Positions 34,748 to 42,929 of a stretch of DNA of 64,000 nucleotides are shown here, piece by piece (the first letter of the stretch is position 1; the number at the start of each line of letters is the position of its first letter). The notes beneath the pieces were generated by a model. That model worked only from the letters and a program-made list of their open reading frames with translations, ran no database searches and was not told the DNA's origin. A program made the position numbers and the translations under genes. The DNA is taken from the NCBI RefSeq assembly GCF_053078305.1, contig NZ_CP166879.1; one strand, 5' to 3'.

Positions 34748-35266
34748 TTACGCTTTGGCTTCTTTATGGGTTAAATTGAAATGATGCTCCTTGGTTTCAT
34801 CTCCCTCGAAAATCTCTCTAACCTTTTGATCTGATAAATTATTAAGGCTCAATGCTGCCAGGCGTCGAATACCTGTTAAAGCGATCAACTCTTGATTCTC
34901 TTGATTGCAGAATTCCAGCAATTTTTCTACCCCTTTCCTTCTCAAGGTGTAAATAACTAATTCTTGCTCTTCTTGGCTCAAAGTGTCGATGAGTTCGAGC
35001 AACTCGCTATTGCCACCGTTCTTTTGAGGGGGCTGGTGTTTTATTTCTGCACTACCTGTAATGATGGAAACAACATGTGCAGGTAAGTCGCTTAAACGGT
35101 AGGCAAATGCTCTCCCTCTGATACCAGGTGTAGTTACCGAACGTTTTTCCCATCCTTCATTTTTTGCTCGTTTATGAAGCCCAGCCAGAGATGAAGGAAG
35201 ACCTCCAACCCCCAACAAGTCACTGGCAAGGATCCATTCTTGGTCAAGGATCATATCAAACTCCAT
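34748..35266 (-). CDS. Mu c-type prophage repressor
   Basis: 172 aa, transcribed leftward ~280 bp from the left end; N-terminal motif LPSSLAGLHKRAK shared with the transposase N-terminus (LPSSLAGLHKKAK). Confidence 0.7.
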   Translation of the reverse strand: MEFDMILDQEWILASDLLGVGGLPSSLAGLHKRAKNEGWEKRSVTTPGIRGRAFAYRLSDLPAHVVSIITGSAEIKHQPPQKNGGNSELLELIDTLSQEEQELVIYTLRRKGVEKLLEFCNQENQELIALTGIRRLAALSLNNLSDQKVREIFEGDETKEHHFNLTHKEAKA

Positions 35267-35483: not shown

Positions 35484-35729
35484 GTGAGTCTTATTGAAGA
35501 TTGGTCTTCCGCCGATATAAAGGCAGCCTTAGAAAAACGCGATACCAATTTGTCACGTTTATCAAGGGAAAATAATTTGCAGCCTAGGACTTTGGGTAAT
35601 GCTTTGCGAGTTCCCTACCCTAAAGGTGAAAAGATAATTGCTAGGGCTATAGGTGTAGAGCCACAGGTTATTTGGCCTACTAGATATGAACGACGTGCGC
35701 GGAGGAAATATGTGGGTTGCAATGACTGA
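35484..35729 (+). CDS. ner: Ner/Nlp-family DNA-binding protein
   Basis: 81 aa; resembles Mu Ner / E. coli Nlp (...LSRLSRENNLQPRTLGNALRVPYPKGEKIIARAIGVEPQVIWPTRY). Confidence 0.75.
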   Translation: MSLIEDWSSADIKAALEKRDTNLSRLSRENNLQPRTLGNALRVPYPKGEKIIARAIGVEPQVIWPTRYERRARRKYVGCND

Positions 35730-37794
35730 ATTGATTTCATTCAGTGACCTACCTAGTTCTTTGGCAGGTCTGCACAAAAAAGCAAAGAGGGAAGCGTGGA
35801 AAACGCGGCTAAAACCAGGGGTAAAAGGGAAAGTTTTAGAGTGTGAAATAGGAGCTTTGCCTTTAACTGTTCAGCAGGCAGTACGCGAACGCCATGCCCT
35901 GCAACTGATGACGCAAAAAGCCGATGAATCACCGGCTCCGGTGGTGACAAAGGCCAGACGCTCACCTGCCGTGGTTGATGCGGTGGAGGCATATCGCGGA
36001 TCACCCCAACTGATGGTCGAACGCCTCAATGCCCTGACTGAAAATCAGCGCCAGGTGGCTGATGCACGAATCGCGATCGTCAGCGAAGTTCTGAAAGTCG
36101 CGCAACAACCTGGTTTCAGCTGTGCGAAGGCTATCCGGTTTATCGTTGACAACCTGGCACGTTCGCAGTTGGACGAGCGCATTGTGGCAATGGTTGAGAC
36201 GGCGAACGCCAAAAAGGGAAACAGCCGCGCGTTAAGTGAAATCACGCTGAAACGCTGGATTGCGGCCTTTAACAAGGCGCAGAACGCCGCTGAACGCCTG
36301 CTTTTACTGGCACCGGGTAAGCGCCAGGAAATAAAAGCCGAAGATATTAACTGGCTGCCCGAATTTCTGGCGCAGTATCGCCAGTCAAACGGCCGACCAA
36401 TGACCGAGGCTTACGAGGATTTTGTCGCTGAATGGCAGCACCGGCACGCCGATGAGCCTTATATGCTCGATATCATGCCGTCTTATGACACCATTCGCCG
36501 CGCAATGAAGAAACTGCCGGAAGTGGTGAAACAAAAAGGCCGGGTGACCGGCAGTGAATACCGCCAGCTTGAGGGATTCACGCGCCGCGACTGGTCAAAA
36601 ATGCCGGTGAATTATGTCTGGATTGGTGACGGTCACGGCATGAAGCTGAAATGCGCACACCCGGTTCACGGTCGGCCATTTGCACCGGAAGTGACCTTTG
36701 TTATCGACGGTGGCACGCGCTTTGTGGTGGGCTGGAGCCTTGACCTGGCTGAAAATGTTTTCGCCGTAGCCGGTGCCATACAGCACGGCATTCGCCATCA
36801 CGGCAAACCGTTTCTGTATTACTCGGATAACGGCTCCGGGGAAACCGCCGACATCCTGGATAAGGAGGTTGTGGGGATACTGCCGCGACTGGGGATTAAT
36901 CACCCGACCGGGATTGCCGGTAATCCGCAGGGACGAGGCATTATCGAACGGCTTAACCGCACATTACCGATGCGCATAGCCCGTAAATACCGCACCTATT
37001 TCGGGAAAGGTGCAGATCGCGAGACGTTACGCAAAACCAACCGCGATTTACGCTCGGCATTTACTGCCCTGCAACAGGGCAAACGGCTGAACGCCCGGCA
37101 GCAGTCAGCGATGCGTGATTTACCGTCCTGGTCTGAACTGATTGATGCCATTCGTGACGGTGTTGAGTGGTACAACAACCGGCCGCACGATGAATTACCG
37201 GTGAAGCCGAACGGCAAGCATTACAGCCCGGCGGAGTTCAGAAAAAAACGCCTGGCGGAAGAGGACACGGAAATTGAATGGCTGTCCGATGTTGAGCTGC
37301 GGGATATGTTCCGGCCGATGGTGGAACGCCCTGTAAGACGCTGTGAAATACGCTGGCTGAATAATATTTACTACGCGCCCGAGCTGCGTGACGAGCATGG
37401 TCGTAAGGTGCTTATCAGCTATGACATTCATGATGCCGAACGAATTACCGTACGTCGCCTGGATGGCAGCGTGATTTGCGAGGCGGTATGGGACGGTAAT
37501 AAACGCGAAGCCTTCCCGGTTAGCGCGGAATACTACAAACAGCAGCAACGCCTTAAAGGCATGCGTAAACGCGCAGAGGAAAAAATCCGTGATGCCGAGG
37601 ATGAGGTTGTCAACGTGCTGGAGCACAAGCCGCAGGAGCCCTGGCTGGAAAACATATACCGCCCTGTGGGTAATACGGTGACCGTTCAGCAACCGGTCGC
37701 TGACGATGAACCTGATGAAGAATACGAGCGTAATTTCCAGCGGGGATTGCAGTTGCTGGAAGCGAAATTAAAAGAAAATGACCCGCTGGCCTGA
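35710..37794 (+). CDS. Mu-type DDE transposase (MuA-like)
   Basis: ORF 35686..37794; N-terminal repressor-like DNA-binding domain; DDE core (WIGDGHG, YYSDNGSGE); start codon ambiguous. Confidence 0.9.
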   Translation: MWVAMTELISFSDLPSSLAGLHKKAKREAWKTRLKPGVKGKVLECEIGALPLTVQQAVRERHALQLMTQKADESPAPVVTKARRSPAVVDAVEAYRGSPQLMVERLNALTENQRQVADARIAIVSEVLKVAQQPGFSCAKAIRFIVDNLARSQLDERIVAMVETANAKKGNSRALSEITLKRWIAAFNKAQNAAERLLLLAPGKRQEIKAEDINWLPEFLAQYRQSNGRPMTEAYEDFVAEWQHRHADEPYMLDIMPSYDTIRRAMKKLPEVVKQKGRVTGSEYRQLEGFTRRDWSKMPVNYVWIGDGHGMKLKCAHPVHGRPFAPEVTFVIDGGTRFVVGWSLDLAENVFAVAGAIQHGIRHHGKPFLYYSDNGSGETADILDKEVVGILPRLGINHPTGIAGNPQGRGIIERLNRTLPMRIARKYRTYFGKGADRETLRKTNRDLRSAFTALQQGKRLNARQQSAMRDLPSWSELIDAIRDGVEWYNNRPHDELPVKPNGKHYSPAEFRKKRLAEEDTEIEWLSDVELRDMFRPMVERPVRRCEIRWLNNIYYAPELRDEHGRKVLISYDIHDAERITVRRLDGSVICEAVWDGNKREAFPVSAEYYKQQQRLKGMRKRAEEKIRDAEDEVVNVLEHKPQEPWLENIYRPVGNTVTVQQPVADDEPDEEYERNFQRGLQLLEAKLKENDPLA

Positions 37795-37865: not shown

Positions 37866-38798
37866 ATGACTGATATTAACGATGTAATCAAGACCATTGA
37901 TGAACTTATTGATGGCGGCGTACTGACGCAGTATGCCATCGCCAGAGAGGCGGGAATTTCCGACGGCACATTATCGGCTTTCCGTAAGGGAAAATATAAA
38001 GGCGATAACGCTGCTGTGGCTGCTTCCCTGCGTTCCTGGTATGAGAACTGGAATAAACAAAGCGCACTGCCGGAACCGCCGCAGTTTGTGGAAACGCAGA
38101 CAGTCCAGGAGCTGCGCACACTGTTTCAGGCGGTTCGTCTGATGGGCTGTATTAACGTTATTGTGGGCGTACCGGGTGTGGGTAAAACGGCCACTGCCCG
38201 TAATTACTGCCAGGAGCAACCAAACACCTGGATGATCACCCTGTCACCCGCGCACTCCAGCGTCACGGAGTGTCTGCTGGAGCTGGCCGATGCGCTGGGG
38301 ATTGATTACACCCGCGCGAACAAAGGGGCATTATCCCGCGCCATCCGCCGTCGCCTGATGGGAACGCGTGGACTGGTGATTGTGGATGAGGCGGATCATC
38401 TTGGTATTGACGGTCTGGAGCAACTCCGGGCAATTCAGGACGCCACGGGGATCGGGATGGTGCTTATTGGTAACCCGCGCGGATTGTTTAAAGGTGGACG
38501 CCGCGCCTTTGATGATTTATCGCGCCTGTTCAGCCGTCTTGCCCGTACAAAACAACTTCGCAAGGCCAAAAAGGCGGATGTGCTGGCCATTGCCAGTGCG
38601 TGGGGGATCAGTGGTGAGGCCGAGCTGGCCGTCATGCAGGCTATCGCTGAAAAGCCGGGAGCGTTACGCGTTCTGACACATACGCTTAACCAGGCGTGGC
38701 TCACCGCCAGCGGTGAAGGCGCGGCGCTGACAGAAAAACATATTAATGCGGCCTTTAAAGAGGTTTATACCAACCCTGAATTACTCTCACAGGTGTGA
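37866..38798 (+). CDS. Mu B-like AAA+ ATPase (target DNA activator)
   Basis: 310 aa; N-terminal HTH, Walker A GVPGVGKT, Walker B VIVDEADHL. Confidence 0.85.
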   Translation: MTDINDVIKTIDELIDGGVLTQYAIAREAGISDGTLSAFRKGKYKGDNAAVAASLRSWYENWNKQSALPEPPQFVETQTVQELRTLFQAVRLMGCINVIVGVPGVGKTATARNYCQEQPNTWMITLSPAHSSVTECLLELADALGIDYTRANKGALSRAIRRRLMGTRGLVIVDEADHLGIDGLEQLRAIQDATGIGMVLIGNPRGLFKGGRRAFDDLSRLFSRLARTKQLRKAKKADVLAIASAWGISGEAELAVMQAIAEKPGALRVLTHTLNQAWLTASGEGAALTEKHINAAFKEVYTNPELLSQV

Positions 38799-39022
38799 TT
38801 ATGGCGGTATTTAATATTCCTGATATTTACGGACGCTTTTACCTGGTTAATTTCGATAACGTGAAGGTGATTTCACTGGCCGAAAATAAAGAATGTGGCG
38901 ATTTACTTTTTGAATTTAATGACCGCACACGAATGGTGATATCTGCCGGACTTGATCGCGAAGGTGCGACAGACGTTTACAGCGGAATATGCCGTTCTGT
39001 TGGTGCGAAACAAGTCAGCTAA
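38795..39022 (+). CDS. Hypothetical protein (prophage accessory region)
   Basis: 75-aa ORF overlapping B stop by 4 bp; no recognisable motif. Confidence 0.45.
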   Translation: MIMAVFNIPDIYGRFYLVNFDNVKVISLAENKECGDLLFEFNDRTRMVISAGLDREGATDVYSGICRSVGAKQVS

Positions 39023-39289
39023 ATGAGGTGTTATATGAATATGCAATCCTGCGGTAACAAAATGAATTTATTCGACTCCCTGAACAGCGCGCGCCGTCTG
39101 ACCGAACTTGCCGGTGCGGTACTGGAACGCAGTAAGCGCTATCCGCAACGTTTTGCACTGAAAACCACGCCGCCGGTAGGCAACGTGCAGGGAACCGGTG
39201 AAATTGAAATCACCATACAGACCAACGGCCTGCGCCGCCGTGTGAAGGCCACCCGCATCAGCGGCTGCACGGTTTACTGGGAGGTGTGA
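39023..39289 (+). CDS. Hypothetical protein (prophage accessory region)
   Basis: 88-aa ORF, tightly packed in the same operon; start may be an internal Met. Confidence 0.45.
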   Translation: MRCYMNMQSCGNKMNLFDSLNSARRLTELAGAVLERSKRYPQRFALKTTPPVGNVQGTGEIEITIQTNGLRRRVKATRISGCTVYWEV

Positions 39290-39366
39290 GGTGAAAAAAA
39301 AATCTCATTGCATGGGCGTGGTCGAGTGGTCTTATTGAGTTTGGTTACGTCCTGCCGGAAGGTGCA

Positions 39367-39573
39367 TTGCCGATAGTTGCCGGAAAGCCTGCCACGGTAC
39401 GGCATGTGATTGAGGTTATGGCGCGTCATGGACGTGATGAACAGGAGCAGTTACTGGTTCCGGGGATACCGGAAGCGGTGACGGAGGAAGAAGCCTTTAA
39501 TGCCATGATTCGGTTCTGCCGTGAGGTCAGACGCCGGGTCAGTTATCCAAACAGAACGAGGACCAGAGGATGA
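39367..39573 (+). CDS. Hypothetical small acidic protein
   Basis: 68-aa ORF; possible upstream GTG extension near 39292; stop overlaps next start. Confidence 0.4.
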   Translation: MPIVAGKPATVRHVIEVMARHGRDEQEQLLVPGIPEAVTEEEAFNAMIRFCREVRRRVSYPNRTRTRG

Positions 39574-39842
39574 GTAAAGTCGTACGCATTATTTTCGAAT
39601 ACAAGGAGCACGTTATCCATAAAAACGCGGATGGAACAGTGCGCATGGGGATAAGTCTGGACATACGTTCAACCGGGATAAAGCAGAAAGGTGATGGACC
39701 TGCCATGATTTTTGGGGTGGTTATGCTCGCGGAAAGCAGAGACTTTGCTGAACTTGTGGCAATGAAAGCCAGTGCGCTCATGAAAGATATGAGCATGCGT
39801 TCCGGGGTTATTAAAGGTAATGAATTTAATCAGCAGGGGTAA
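39570..39842 (+). CDS. Hypothetical protein, paralogue A of a tandem pair
   Basis: 90 aa, MSKVVRIIFEYKEHVIHKNADGTV...; N-terminus resembles the next gene. Confidence 0.5.
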   Translation: MSKVVRIIFEYKEHVIHKNADGTVRMGISLDIRSTGIKQKGDGPAMIFGVVMLAESRDFAELVAMKASALMKDMSMRSGVIKGNEFNQQG

Positions 39843-39846
39843 TTCC

Positions 39847-40140
39847 ATGAGCAAAGTACGCGTTATTTTTGAATTTAAGCATGTTTCGCATGACGAAAAA
39901 CCGGCAGGCAATGACTGTGTTGAAGTGCATGAAAAGATTGGTGTGGATGTAAAAACAGAACGTGATACGAATAACAGGCCGACGTCACTCTGTGACGTTT
40001 ATGTAAGTATTCTCCAGTATCACAGTCCTGAAATTATTCAGTTTCTCTCAGCGGAATTTCAGGCATCTGTACAGGCTTTTGGGGCGGATGCCATCATTAA
40101 ACGCCACCGCGTGCATAAAGCATCAGGCACACTGCAATAA
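39847..40140 (+). CDS. Hypothetical protein, paralogue B of a tandem pair
   Basis: ORF 39820..40140; likely start MSKVRVIFEFKHVSHDEKPAGND... Confidence 0.5.
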   Translation: MSKVRVIFEFKHVSHDEKPAGNDCVEVHEKIGVDVKTERDTNNRPTSLCDVYVSILQYHSPEIIQFLSAEFQASVQAFGADAIIKRHRVHKASGTLQ

Positions 40141-40151
40141 GGAAAAACAAA

Positions 40152-40682
40152 ATGGCAAAACGCGTTACAAAATTAAAGGCCGCAGCAGAGGCGGCACCGC
40201 AGACCCGTGAAGAGGTCAGCCGCGATATCCGCACCCTGGGCGATATTCAGCGAGAGGCGCTGCGCCTGGAAACAGCGATGAATGATGAAGTGGCAGAAAT
40301 CACCGCCCGTTATACGCCGCAGATTGAAAACCTTAAAAAAGAAATCAAAGTGCTTTTTAAGGGGATTCAGGACTGGTGCAAAACCAACCGTGATGAGCTG
40401 ACGAACGGCGGCAAAACCAAAACTGCCAATCTGACCACCGGAACAGTGTCATGGCGGCTGGGAAATCCATCATGCAGCGTCAGCCGTGATGTGGAAGGTG
40501 TGATTGAAATGCTGCGCCGTATGGGGCTTGAGCGATTCATCCGCACGAAAGAGGAAGTGAACAAGGAAGCGGTCCTGGCGGAGCCGGATGCAGTGAAAGG
40601 CATTGCCGGTATTAAGGTGAATAAAGGCGCTGAAAGTTTTTATGTCGAGCCTTTTGAACAGGACGCCGGACTGAATAAATAA
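40152..40682 (+). CDS. gam: Host-nuclease inhibitor Gam (Mu Gam family, DNA-end binding)
   Basis: 176 aa; size, position after B and sequence features consistent with Mu Gam. Confidence 0.75.
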   Translation: MAKRVTKLKAAAEAAPQTREEVSRDIRTLGDIQREALRLETAMNDEVAEITARYTPQIENLKKEIKVLFKGIQDWCKTNRDELTNGGKTKTANLTTGTVSWRLGNPSCSVSRDVEGVIEMLRRMGLERFIRTKEEVNKEAVLAEPDAVKGIAGIKVNKGAESFYVEPFEQDAGLNK

Positions 40683-40779: not shown

Positions 40780-41322
40780 ATGGCATATTTTTATTTCAAA
40801 TTAGACCGTGTGCAGACAAATAAATATTTCACCAAATATCAACAGACTGTTTTACCGCTACGCAACAGTATTCTTCGGGCATTACTGAAAAATACAGGCG
40901 CTGCCGGATTGCGCTTAAAGCCGTTTGCCATGGACGTAATCAGTGAGTTTTATTTTTCTGGTACTCTGCCTGCGGGCTGGCGTAAGCGCGATGATGTGGC
41001 TTTTATCGGGGACGGACCGTGCTTTATTGCCAGACCTGATGAGTCATGCCCTGAAGGACCGGCGATTGCCGCAATGATTGAAGCCGCTGAACGCGAGTTA
41101 AGAAAGCGTCCTGATTTCCTTGTCTGGCTCTGTGAAAAGCTGGGGGTAATGAGAATCCCCTCCATGTTTAACATGGACTCCTGGTGGACCCCGTCGCTCT
41201 CCCGTGATGCCCTGTGCGTGGTGTTTAAAGTAGGCGCTTATGGCAGGGAAATAAAAGGGGGTATTCCTGAAGAATGCCAGGAGATTAAACATTCTGAATA
41301 TGTGGCGCTGACGGAGGAATAA
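40780..41322 (+). CDS. Hypothetical protein
   Basis: 180-aa ORF, no recognisable motif. Confidence 0.45.
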   Translation: MAYFYFKLDRVQTNKYFTKYQQTVLPLRNSILRALLKNTGAAGLRLKPFAMDVISEFYFSGTLPAGWRKRDDVAFIGDGPCFIARPDESCPEGPAIAAMIEAAERELRKRPDFLVWLCEKLGVMRIPSMFNMDSWWTPSLSRDALCVVFKVGAYGREIKGGIPEECQEIKHSEYVALTEE

Positions 41323-42377: not shown

Positions 42378-42929
42378 ATGATGATTTTACAACCCATGGG
42401 GCGAAAAGGTCAGGCACCTGCTCATGTCCGTGCGTGGACACCTGAAGAAGATGCGCTGCTGATTGCGCTTTATCCATCCACCCCGGTTAAGGATATTGCT
42501 GTCAGGGTAAAAAGAAGTTTCTGGGGTGTACATAACCGGATTGTTTTATTACGCGGTACTTACCCGGAGTTGCTCAAATGCAAACGTCCAAGATTTAAAC
42601 ATGATGAAGATAAATTTATCCGAAAAAATGCCAGAACGATGACCGGTAAGCAAATAGGAGAATATCTGGGGCGAGACCGGGATTCTGTCCACAATCGGGC
42701 GCGATATATTGGCGTAAGCATGAAAAAATACGGAGAATTGCTGCCCTTCACCCGTATACCTGACGATGATGTTCATCTTATTCGTGAATTACGGGATGCT
42801 GAATCACCACGACGTCTTACCTTCCGGGAAATAGGCGAGAAATTTGAATTATCCGAGAGTACGGTGAATTTTATTTATCACCATCGCCGGACTGCCGAGG
42901 ACGCTGTATTACGGGAGTTAACGCCATGA
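42378..42929 (+). CDS. Hypothetical DNA-binding protein with three tandem ~45-aa Myb/HTH-like repeats
   Basis: 183 aa; repeats begin WTPEEDALLIALY..., KHDEDKFIRKNAR..., IPDDDVHLIRELRD..., each ending in an S-x-x-N-R/H-R-R-like motif; AT-rich codon usage. Confidence 0.5.
   Translation: MMILQPMGRKGQAPAHVRAWTPEEDALLIALYPSTPVKDIAVRVKRSFWGVHNRIVLLRGTYPELLKCKRPRFKHDEDKFIRKNARTMTGKQIGEYLGRDRDSVHNRARYIGVSMKKYGELLPFTRIPDDDVHLIRELRDAESPRRLTFREIGEKFELSESTVNFIYHHRRTAEDAVLRELTP

Follow-up and report, generated by a model that had tools for sequence, protein, structure and literature searches.

What is encoded by the small genes that separate B from gam in an O157-type Mu-like prophage, and why do two adjacent ones begin almost alike? 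We focused on a 64,000-nucleotide (nt) stretch of contig NZ_CP166879.1 (NCBI RefSeq assembly GCF_053078305.1), hereafter the window, in which such a prophage carries ner, A and B in its early operon. The five genes after B, here called g1 to g5, had been described in an earlier note made from the letters of this DNA. They are not five unknowns: g2 is homologous to Mu Kil, g3 carries a frameshift, and g4 and g5 belong to the family of Mu gp7 (E6), whose Mu member is known as Gnarl2. The reading that we favor, with reasonable though not high confidence, is an early accessory cluster of translationally coupled genes that combines Kil, an inactivated g3 and two putative O-antigen effectors of the Gnarl2 family. 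Existing knowledge largely explains the cluster (Kil, a Gnarl2-family pair and a decaying DMS3-12-like gene, plus g1); new here are the added members and an atypical second copy in a recently named family. The features of the interval are as follows (aa, amino acids).

37866-38798, plus strand: B, a MuB-type AAA+ transposition ATPase that bounds the cluster upstream (48.7% identity with Mu B across 300 aa, E=4e-95)
38801-39022, plus strand: g1, 73 aa, PHROG 3375; alternative GTG start at 38795
39035-39289, plus strand: g2, 84 aa, homologue of Mu Kil (gp5)
39291-39573, plus strand: g3, DMS3-12-like, 93 aa when intact (in relatives), frameshifted in the window
39294-39302, plus strand: run of nine A (A9) that disrupts g3; A8 in relatives
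39570-39842, plus strand: g4, 90 aa, divergent paralogue in the Gnarl2 (Mu gp7/E6) family
39570-39614, plus strand: 5′ segment of g4, which resembles the 5′ segment of g5 (39847-39885) in pairwise DNA alignment
39847-40140, plus strand: g5, 97 aa, by sequence a clear member of the Gnarl2 (Mu gp7/E6) family, in the subgroup starting MS(N)K-x-VIF-x-FE
40152-40682, plus strand: gam, for a DNA-end-binding host nuclease inhibitor of the Mu Gam type; bounds the cluster downstream

Family membership of g4 and g5

The N-termini of g4 and g5 had been described as near-identical, and direct BLASTP bore this out, with 12 of 17 N-terminal residues matching (E=0.001). At the DNA level ~33 of 39 aligned nucleotides agreed within the 5′-terminal ~45 nt, where two indels of codon size occur, and similarity was lost beyond; because of these indels the 5′ repeat was missed by the repeat search. 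Profile-profile comparison (hhalign) of the g4 and g5 families gave a probability of 84% and E=7e-6, confined to residues 1-34.

Word-indexed homologue searches returned E. coli relatives only, at >66% identity. An exhaustive profile search of 1.84 billion representative proteins yielded 46 clusters at 50% identity for the Gnarl2 family, with lengths of ~80-100 aa apart from fragments and two artefacts. The latter (P0063 and P0098), long repetitive proteins near the top of the search, were rejected as products of their internal repeats. Family members align collinearly from end to end, with a mean column identity of 38%, and the start M-x-K-V-I-F-E-F is common to the whole family.

A family hidden Markov model (HMM) was built from 31 sequences that included Mu gp7 and excluded g4-type and window-type g5 proteins. 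It scored g5 at 45.5 bits (E=3.7e-16, HMM positions 2-78 of 86) and g4 at 23.6 bits, while seven other small early proteins reached at most 0.7 bits. With the shared N-terminus removed, g5 still scored 33.0 bits and g4 16.4 bits, the latter against a maximum of 9.3 bits in 200 shuffles; these shuffled controls also indicated that the nominal HMMER E-values are ~50-100 times too optimistic. In addition, g5 matched phrog_2230 with E=1.7e-39, and Mu gp7 matched the same profile over its full length (E=0.009). On these grounds g4 and g5 belong to one family, with g5 a clear member and g4 an outlier, and our verdict is that they add members to a family already known but poorly understood. The claim that they are paralogues stands in this broad sense, as both match a profile built without them; in direct comparison they are alike only at the N-terminus.

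A shared start in two unrelated proteins could also arise by convergence or chance, for example through a translation-initiation constraint in coupled genes, and it would fit such an origin that nothing was detected beyond residue 34 in direct comparison and that the g4-family HMM matched g5 without its N-terminus at only E=0.07. Against this, each protein matches the independent family profile over most of its length, also without the N-terminus, g4 clears every shuffle, and the family alignment is collinear. We consider convergence very improbable.

The two proteins depart from their relatives in some respects. Among the family representatives, 26 of 29 end in His and isoelectric points (pI) range from 4.5 to 7.9, a pattern observed here and not a published criterion; g5 ends in Gln (pI 6.6), and g4 ends in Gly and is basic (pI 9.45). 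Maximum 19-residue Kyte-Doolittle averages were 1.23 for g4 and 0.97 for g5, with no transmembrane segment. Low-confidence AlphaFold2 models of both would place a long N-terminal beta-hairpin before helices. Pfam gave no family for g1, g2, g3 or g5, and its weak matches in the E6-family alignment (best independent E-value 6.8e-3, to RraB in 2 of 18 members; g4-type sequences were among those scanned) were taken as noise. The sequence search of the PDB returned chance-level matches only, and BLASTP of g1, g3, g4 and g5 against Mu gp5-gp9 gave nothing below E=0.2.

Distribution and variation of the interval

Between B and gam lie 1.35 kb of DNA that many O157:H7 and other Shiga-toxin-producing E. 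coli carry in their prophages at 99.3-99.7% identity. The cluster was recovered from 232 of 5,426 complete E. coli genomes (~4%), and the interval also matched Mu-like inserts within two Shiga-toxin phage records. No DNA-level match of the B-gam region was found in phage Mu. For a wider comparison 80 loci were fetched via a Gam anchor, and the B-gam interval was catalogued in 71 of them. Its ORFs were labelled by reference; single-linkage clustering was dropped since fused or frameshifted ORFs made it join families that are unrelated.

Across the 71 loci the interval is a cassette mosaic of 484-1718 nt. Its near-constant occupants are Kil and one ~85-97-aa gene starting M-[AS]-K-V-[IV]-[IF]-E-[FI], which in Mu is gp7 (E6); g1, g3 and Mu's E5, E7 and E8 are variably present. 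An E6-family gene was found in 70 of the 71 intervals, the exception (L082) having an 80-aa ORF that is E6-like by eye. The tandem two-copy state was seen only in the O157-type lineage (~38 of 71 loci), and a single copy in Mu-type phages, in a Salmonella relative (L085) and in the locus L022. The order in L085 is g1, an E7-like gene, kil, g3, one g5-type gene and DUF3164. The region is a variable "semi-essential early" (SE) accessory cluster of the O157-type Mu-like prophage. The E6 family itself was found only in O-antigen-bearing Enterobacterales (Escherichia, Salmonella, Citrobacter, Enterobacter, Kluyvera, Serratia and Edwardsiella).

Rates of nonsynonymous substitution (dN) and their ratio to synonymous rates (dN/dS), by the Nei-Gojobori method, were highest in the interval for g4 and g5:

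g5: dN 0.156, dN/dS 0.37
g4: dN 0.087, dN/dS 0.31
B, kil and gam: dN 0.013-0.028, dN/dS 0.09-0.10 (g2/kil 0.09)

One related locus (L084) differs from the window most in g4, with 54% identity compared to 92% for g5 and 91% for kil, and this divergence reflects fast evolution or allele swapping. The earlier note had suggested that diversifying paralogues fit an arms race. The raised rate is consistent with this idea, and positive selection is unproven because the mean dN/dS lies below 1.

Published Gnarl2 phenotype and proposed role of g4 and g5

Mu gp7/E6/Mup07 (NP_050611.1, NC_000929 4784..5047) is the protein named gnarl2/orf63 by Silas et al. (Nat Commun 2025;16:7828, PMC12373910); the coordinates match Mu_7/E6 in AF083977. 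When wild E. coli expressed gnarl2 by itself, the O-antigen bands of ECOR1 and ECOR22 shifted downwards and T5 infection of these strains rose 10^5-10^6-fold, a strain-specific effect (PMC12373910). The authors suggested a non-enzymatic seroconversion that would exclude superinfection or prevent re-adsorption to debris (PMC12373910). gnarl2 was also among the genes that are lethal in some hosts only (Silas et al. 2023 preprint).

Several properties link g4 and g5 to Mu gp7. All three proteins are small (85-100 aa) and soluble with no transmembrane segment, all are encoded in the early operon of a Mu-type phage between B/kil and gam, and all share the M-x-K-V-I-F-E-F start. They differ in that two copies are present here and one in Mu and most relatives, and in that g4 and g5 lack the C-terminal His, g4 also being basic. 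Gnarl1 and Gnarl3 of lytic phages provide a parallel for the proposed mode of action, as tiny non-enzymatic effectors that alter lipopolysaccharide (LPS) when expressed alone; of these two, only Gnarl3 has an identified target, binding GalU (PMC12373910). They differ from g4 and g5 in being listed under other accessions, from lytic phages.

Based on these likenesses, the cluster would encode five small soluble proteins, with g2 acting in host killing and g3 presumably inactivated here by a one-nucleotide homopolymer expansion. By analogy with Mu gp7, g5 and probably g4 would be non-enzymatic, stand-alone effectors that bind a host factor of LPS or O-antigen synthesis, and the cell surface would be altered after induction or infection. 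A plausible gain would be that superinfection is blocked and progeny phages are kept from re-adsorbing, and two very different copies would most likely widen or change the target or serotype specificity. Gene structure, family membership, mosaic distribution and the raised evolutionary rate come directly from the analysis; we infer expression from the early promoter, an O-antigen-related function and any division of labor between the copies. The O-antigen reading fits the occurrence of the family in O-antigen-bearing Enterobacterales only. The expectation that early small genes next to gam are host-takeover or anti-defence effectors gained partial backing, in that g2 is a Kil homologue and Mu gp7 (gnarl2) has a published host-surface "counter-defence" phenotype (PMC12373910).

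Several points weigh against this interpretation. The score behind the membership of g4 is modest, hhalign of the shallow g4 and g5 alignments against Mu gp7 alone gave no significant match, and both proteins are only ~17-18% identical to Mu gp7 in the family alignment. The AlphaFold2 models, from shallow alignments, had a mean predicted local distance difference test of 54-55 and thus give no fold-level support. Without the C-terminal His, and with the atypical charge of g4, the two may work unlike Mu gp7. The gnarl2 phenotype itself comes from heterologous expression, and affinity purification-mass spectrometry (AP-MS) gave no clear partner (PMC12373910); the O-antigen change may be something other than the native function. 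For g4, g5 and any O157-type allele, a Gnarl2-like function would follow by homology, and with dN/dS below 1 an arms race is not demonstrated.

In another explanation, E6-family proteins (among them g4 and g5) would work for the early programme of the phage itself (transposition, replication, lysis-lysogeny control or cooperation with Kil and Gam), the O-antigen shift by Mu gp7 being an indirect outcome of lone expression in wild hosts. Apart from Kil, nothing recurs in the interval as regularly as the E6-family gene (70 of 71 loci), a pattern closer to a core gene than to a strain-specific accessory, and both the uninformative AP-MS of gnarl2 (PMC12373910) and its conditional lethality in some hosts (preprint) would agree with such a role. 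Mu grows without the SE region, however, and hosts survive better once it is deleted (PMC3325207). The family is also extremely divergent, with dN/dS 3-4 times that of B, kil and gam, as for a host-facing protein, and is limited to Enterobacterales, whereas the g3 family reaches phages of Pseudomonas, Burkholderia and Stenotrophomonas. We consider a role in the phage's own programme unlikely and retain the surface-effector reading.

Gnarl-type proteins are a newly described non-enzymatic route for phages to alter the bacterial surface, and the Gnarl2 family now gains a sequence definition (~46 clusters, an MxKVIFEF start, a usual C-terminal His and near-constant presence between B and gam). 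The Mu-like prophage of ~4% of complete E. coli genomes, many of them O157:H7 or Shiga-toxin-producing, has two very different copies. As natural variants, g4 and g5 are material for finding the Gnarl2 target and specificity residues, and they bear on the O-antigen behavior and phage susceptibility of O157 strains.

Origin of the g4/g5 pair

The near-identical N-termini had been read as a sign of tandem duplication. As a sign of a recent event this did not hold up, as the start is family-wide and g5 lies nearer to Salmonella and Serratia genes than to g4: in the neighbor-joining (NJ) tree of the family g5 groups with single-copy prophage genes of these genera, and a long-branched g4 is placed close by. 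That the two genes were duplicated in tandem recently is unproven because the shared start also occurs between unrelated alleles. In Mu-type loci otherwise unrelated E6 alleles share an identical 5′ flank and ~27 nt before they abruptly diverge. The E6-family 5′ ends of L043-L073 (e.g., L045 3404, L053 2965 and L057 2973) show this, with an identical flank and first ~27 nt (ATGGCAAAAGTAATCTTTGAATTTAA) and then divergence. The conserved 5′ end points either to a first beta-strand under strong constraint or to a junction at which alleles are exchanged by recombination.

Such a junction is central to the alternative that g4 and g5 are of one family and were never duplicated locally, a divergent second member having been inserted as a cassette beside a g5-type gene, with the N-terminal identity stemming from the junction or from later gene conversion. 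This would account for the nearest relatives of g5 being single-copy Salmonella and Serratia prophage genes and not g4, for the direct likeness of the pair only in residues 1-34, and for the 3-4 synonymous differences in the first 13 codons ahead of a rest that cannot be aligned. It would equally fit the abrupt divergence of Mu-type alleles after the same flank and ~27 nt, the mosaic nature of the entire B-gam interval, and the presence of g5 alone in L022, whose interval is shorter by about the distance between the starts of g4 and g5 (277 nt). On the other hand, g4 and the g5-type subgroup share an extended N-terminus, with extra residues before V/I-I-F that Mu-type proteins lack, as expected if g4 descended from a g5-type gene. 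A lineage with a g4-type gene as its single copy, which could have been the donor, was not found, the sole divergent g4 (P0087, in L084) again being paired with g5, and the tree behind the proposal is an NJ tree without bootstrapping, computed from short sequences that diverge strongly. Cassette insertion is a serious possibility, if not one that we would call probable in itself, and an old duplication with fast divergence is about equally likely.

In L022 (interval of 874 nt) g4 is missing and the g3 remnant runs directly into g5. This interval is ~280 nt shorter than those of the g3-deleted loci L012, L023, L024 and L026 (~1150 nt), and its state fits either a single ancestral copy or the loss of g4 through recombination of the two similar 5′ ends.

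A more speculative extension combines origin and role. In this scenario g4, basic, without the terminal His and fast-evolving, might be a neofunctionalized Gnarl2 paralogue with a host target other than those of g5 and Mu gp7, and the pair might remodel the envelope of serotypes, O157 included, that are beyond the reach of a single copy, the ~27-45-nt 5′ end acting as the junction for swapping, duplicating or deleting specificity cassettes. We offer this tentatively, as an idea with more chance of being wrong than right.

The Kil homologue g2 and the accessory gene g1

The g2 protein is basic (pI 10.3) and matched phrog_2679, annotated as "Kil", with E=7.8e-46, and phrog_2743, the family of Mu Kil itself, with E=0.001; reciprocally, Mu Kil matched phrog_2679 with E=9.3e-5. 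Close homologues of g2 aligned with Mu Kil by BLASTP at 27-34% identity (E ~8e-5), and a protein 91% identical to g2 carries a precomputed PF26843 Kil_protein assignment. Our own Pfam profile search gave no match for g2, the release searched being probably older. These matches identify g2 as a homologue of Mu Kil, the early protein for which host killing is described (Mu record note; PMC3325207). In agreement, g2 is likewise small and basic with a conserved C-terminal G-C-x-(V/I)-x-W, and is encoded early downstream of B. The differences are the low identity (~27-34%), the separate PHROGs (2679 for g2 and 2743 for Mu Kil), and the gene order, as Mu kil directly follows B and here g1 stands between B and g2. 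Deletion of the Mu SE region restores host survival (PMC3325207).

The preceding gene, g1, encodes an acidic protein (pI 4.85) that matched phrog_3375 (E=8.9e-47) and had no match in Pfam, NCBIfam or PADLOC. Its dN/dS was 0.22. A homologue with 51% identity is present in a Salmonella Mu-like prophage, and in the phage collection g1 was found only in the Mu-like inserts of two Shiga toxin (Stx) phage records. As a separate observation, LC727881.1 and LC727895.1 have the same Mu-like element annotated inside Stx2c- and Stx1a-converting prophages, i.e., a transposable phage nested in a Shiga-toxin phage.

Comparison with the Mu kil/cim region, as the earlier note had proposed, placed g2 with Kil and g4 and g5 in the Mu gp7 family and left g1 and g3 without a counterpart; the five are accordingly not all orthologues of characterized Mu proteins.

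Frameshift and annotation of g3

The third ORF had been given as 68 aa (39367-39573). An ORF is indeed present there, as the remnant of a 93-aa gene that begins at GTG 39291. From this start the window offers 15 codons before a stop; the rest of the gene is open from 39295, and TTG 39367 is its first possible start. In relatives GTG is followed by A8 and the 93-aa protein is encoded, and alignment with two E. coli genomes revealed one extra A in the window. Among 24 loci with g3, the run is A8 in 22 and A9 only in the window and L044 (IMGVR_UViG_2617271340_000001).

L044 is the same prophage as that of the window: 8.5 kb align with 0 mismatches, and the 11 gap positions are nearly all single-base differences within short homopolymers. 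The extra A is either a genuine mutation specific to this lineage or an error of homopolymer sequencing, the latter being possible because these two copies of one prophage differ nearly only in homopolymers. In L044, homopolymer indels also break g4, g5 and other genes, assembly errors that create false pseudogenes. Runs of nine A can allow partial rescue by transcriptional slippage. In other E. coli loci ~200 nt of g3 are lost (intervals of ~1154 compared to 1356 nt), with the 3′ end kept and read in the g4 frame; this loss shows that g3 is dispensable in the lineage.

The g3 protein had no Pfam match and matched phrog_1518, labelled "host nuclease inhibitor", with E=9.4e-43. Its family comprises genes of Pseudomonas (D3112, DMS3 and JBD), Burkholderia and Stenotrophomonas phages; DMS3-12, JBD69 gp14, BcepMigl gp54 and the C-terminal part of the D3112 "gam" product share 43-50% identity with g3 over ~75-85 residues. 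In the Mu-like phages examined, the gene adjoins gam or lies within two genes of it. The copy in the window differs in being frameshifted.

We rejected g3 as a Gam-type (PF07352) nuclease inhibitor, as it has no similarity to Gam and the label was traced to a fused ORF. In D3112 the 266-aa "gam" ORF (AY394005 7567..8367) consists of Gam in residues 1-161 and a g3-like part in residues 176-248. DMS3 has Gam and the g3-like protein as separate genes, 7077..7595 and 7597..7878, one nucleotide apart, and a frameshift artefact may have produced the D3112 ORF. It is from this fusion that the g3 family appears to have taken its "host nuclease inhibitor" label; the label is without support, and a propagated mis-annotation is hereby corrected.

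Architecture and neighboring genes

All five small ORFs between B and gam were present on the plus strand, as described earlier, and the same five stand in the RefSeq annotation of near-identical prophages. Their limits needed revision at two starts, which are likely ATG 38801 for g1 and ATG 39035 for g2, and not 38795 and 39023. Tight packing after B was also evident: successive gaps from B to gam are 2, 12, 1, -4 (an ATGA overlap), 4 and 11 nt, and a Shine-Dalgarno-like motif precedes every start of g1 to g5. The five genes are translationally coupled. No promoter-like site was found on the plus strand inside the cluster, and the sole plus-strand terminator-like site is within B. The cluster is probably co-transcribed with ner, A and B, given its early-operon position and the lack of internal promoter or terminator signals.

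All five proteins have a PHROG assignment. No membrane-spanning segment was predicted in g1 to g5, none matched the PADLOC defence-system models at E<=1, and NCBIfam returned nothing meaningful for the cluster proteins. An Rfam search of the region gave only chance matches, to eukaryotic long non-coding RNA models.

At the boundaries, the B-equivalent gene is annotated as "AAA family ATPase" in RefSeq, and the gam product is 57% identical to Mu Gam (E=1e-70) and matched phrog_491 (E=3.5e-70). Further upstream the prophage carries:

34748-35266, minus strand: homologue of a c-type repressor
35484-35729: ner
35686-37794: transposase A

In the Salmonella Mu-like prophage L085/L086, a 212-aa DUF3164 protein (4303-4941) occupies the usual position of Gam, right after the single g5-type gene. 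In the window, a 180-aa ORF (40780-41322) lies between gam and the Mu gp11 homologue and had no Mu counterpart by BLASTP; the equivalent gene in Salmonella L085 carries DUF5420. Further downstream, 42378-42929 encodes a 183-aa relative of Mu gp9 (E8) with 30% identity over 103 aa (E=3e-9). This E8-type gene follows the gp11 and gp12 homologues, and in Mu it stands before gam.

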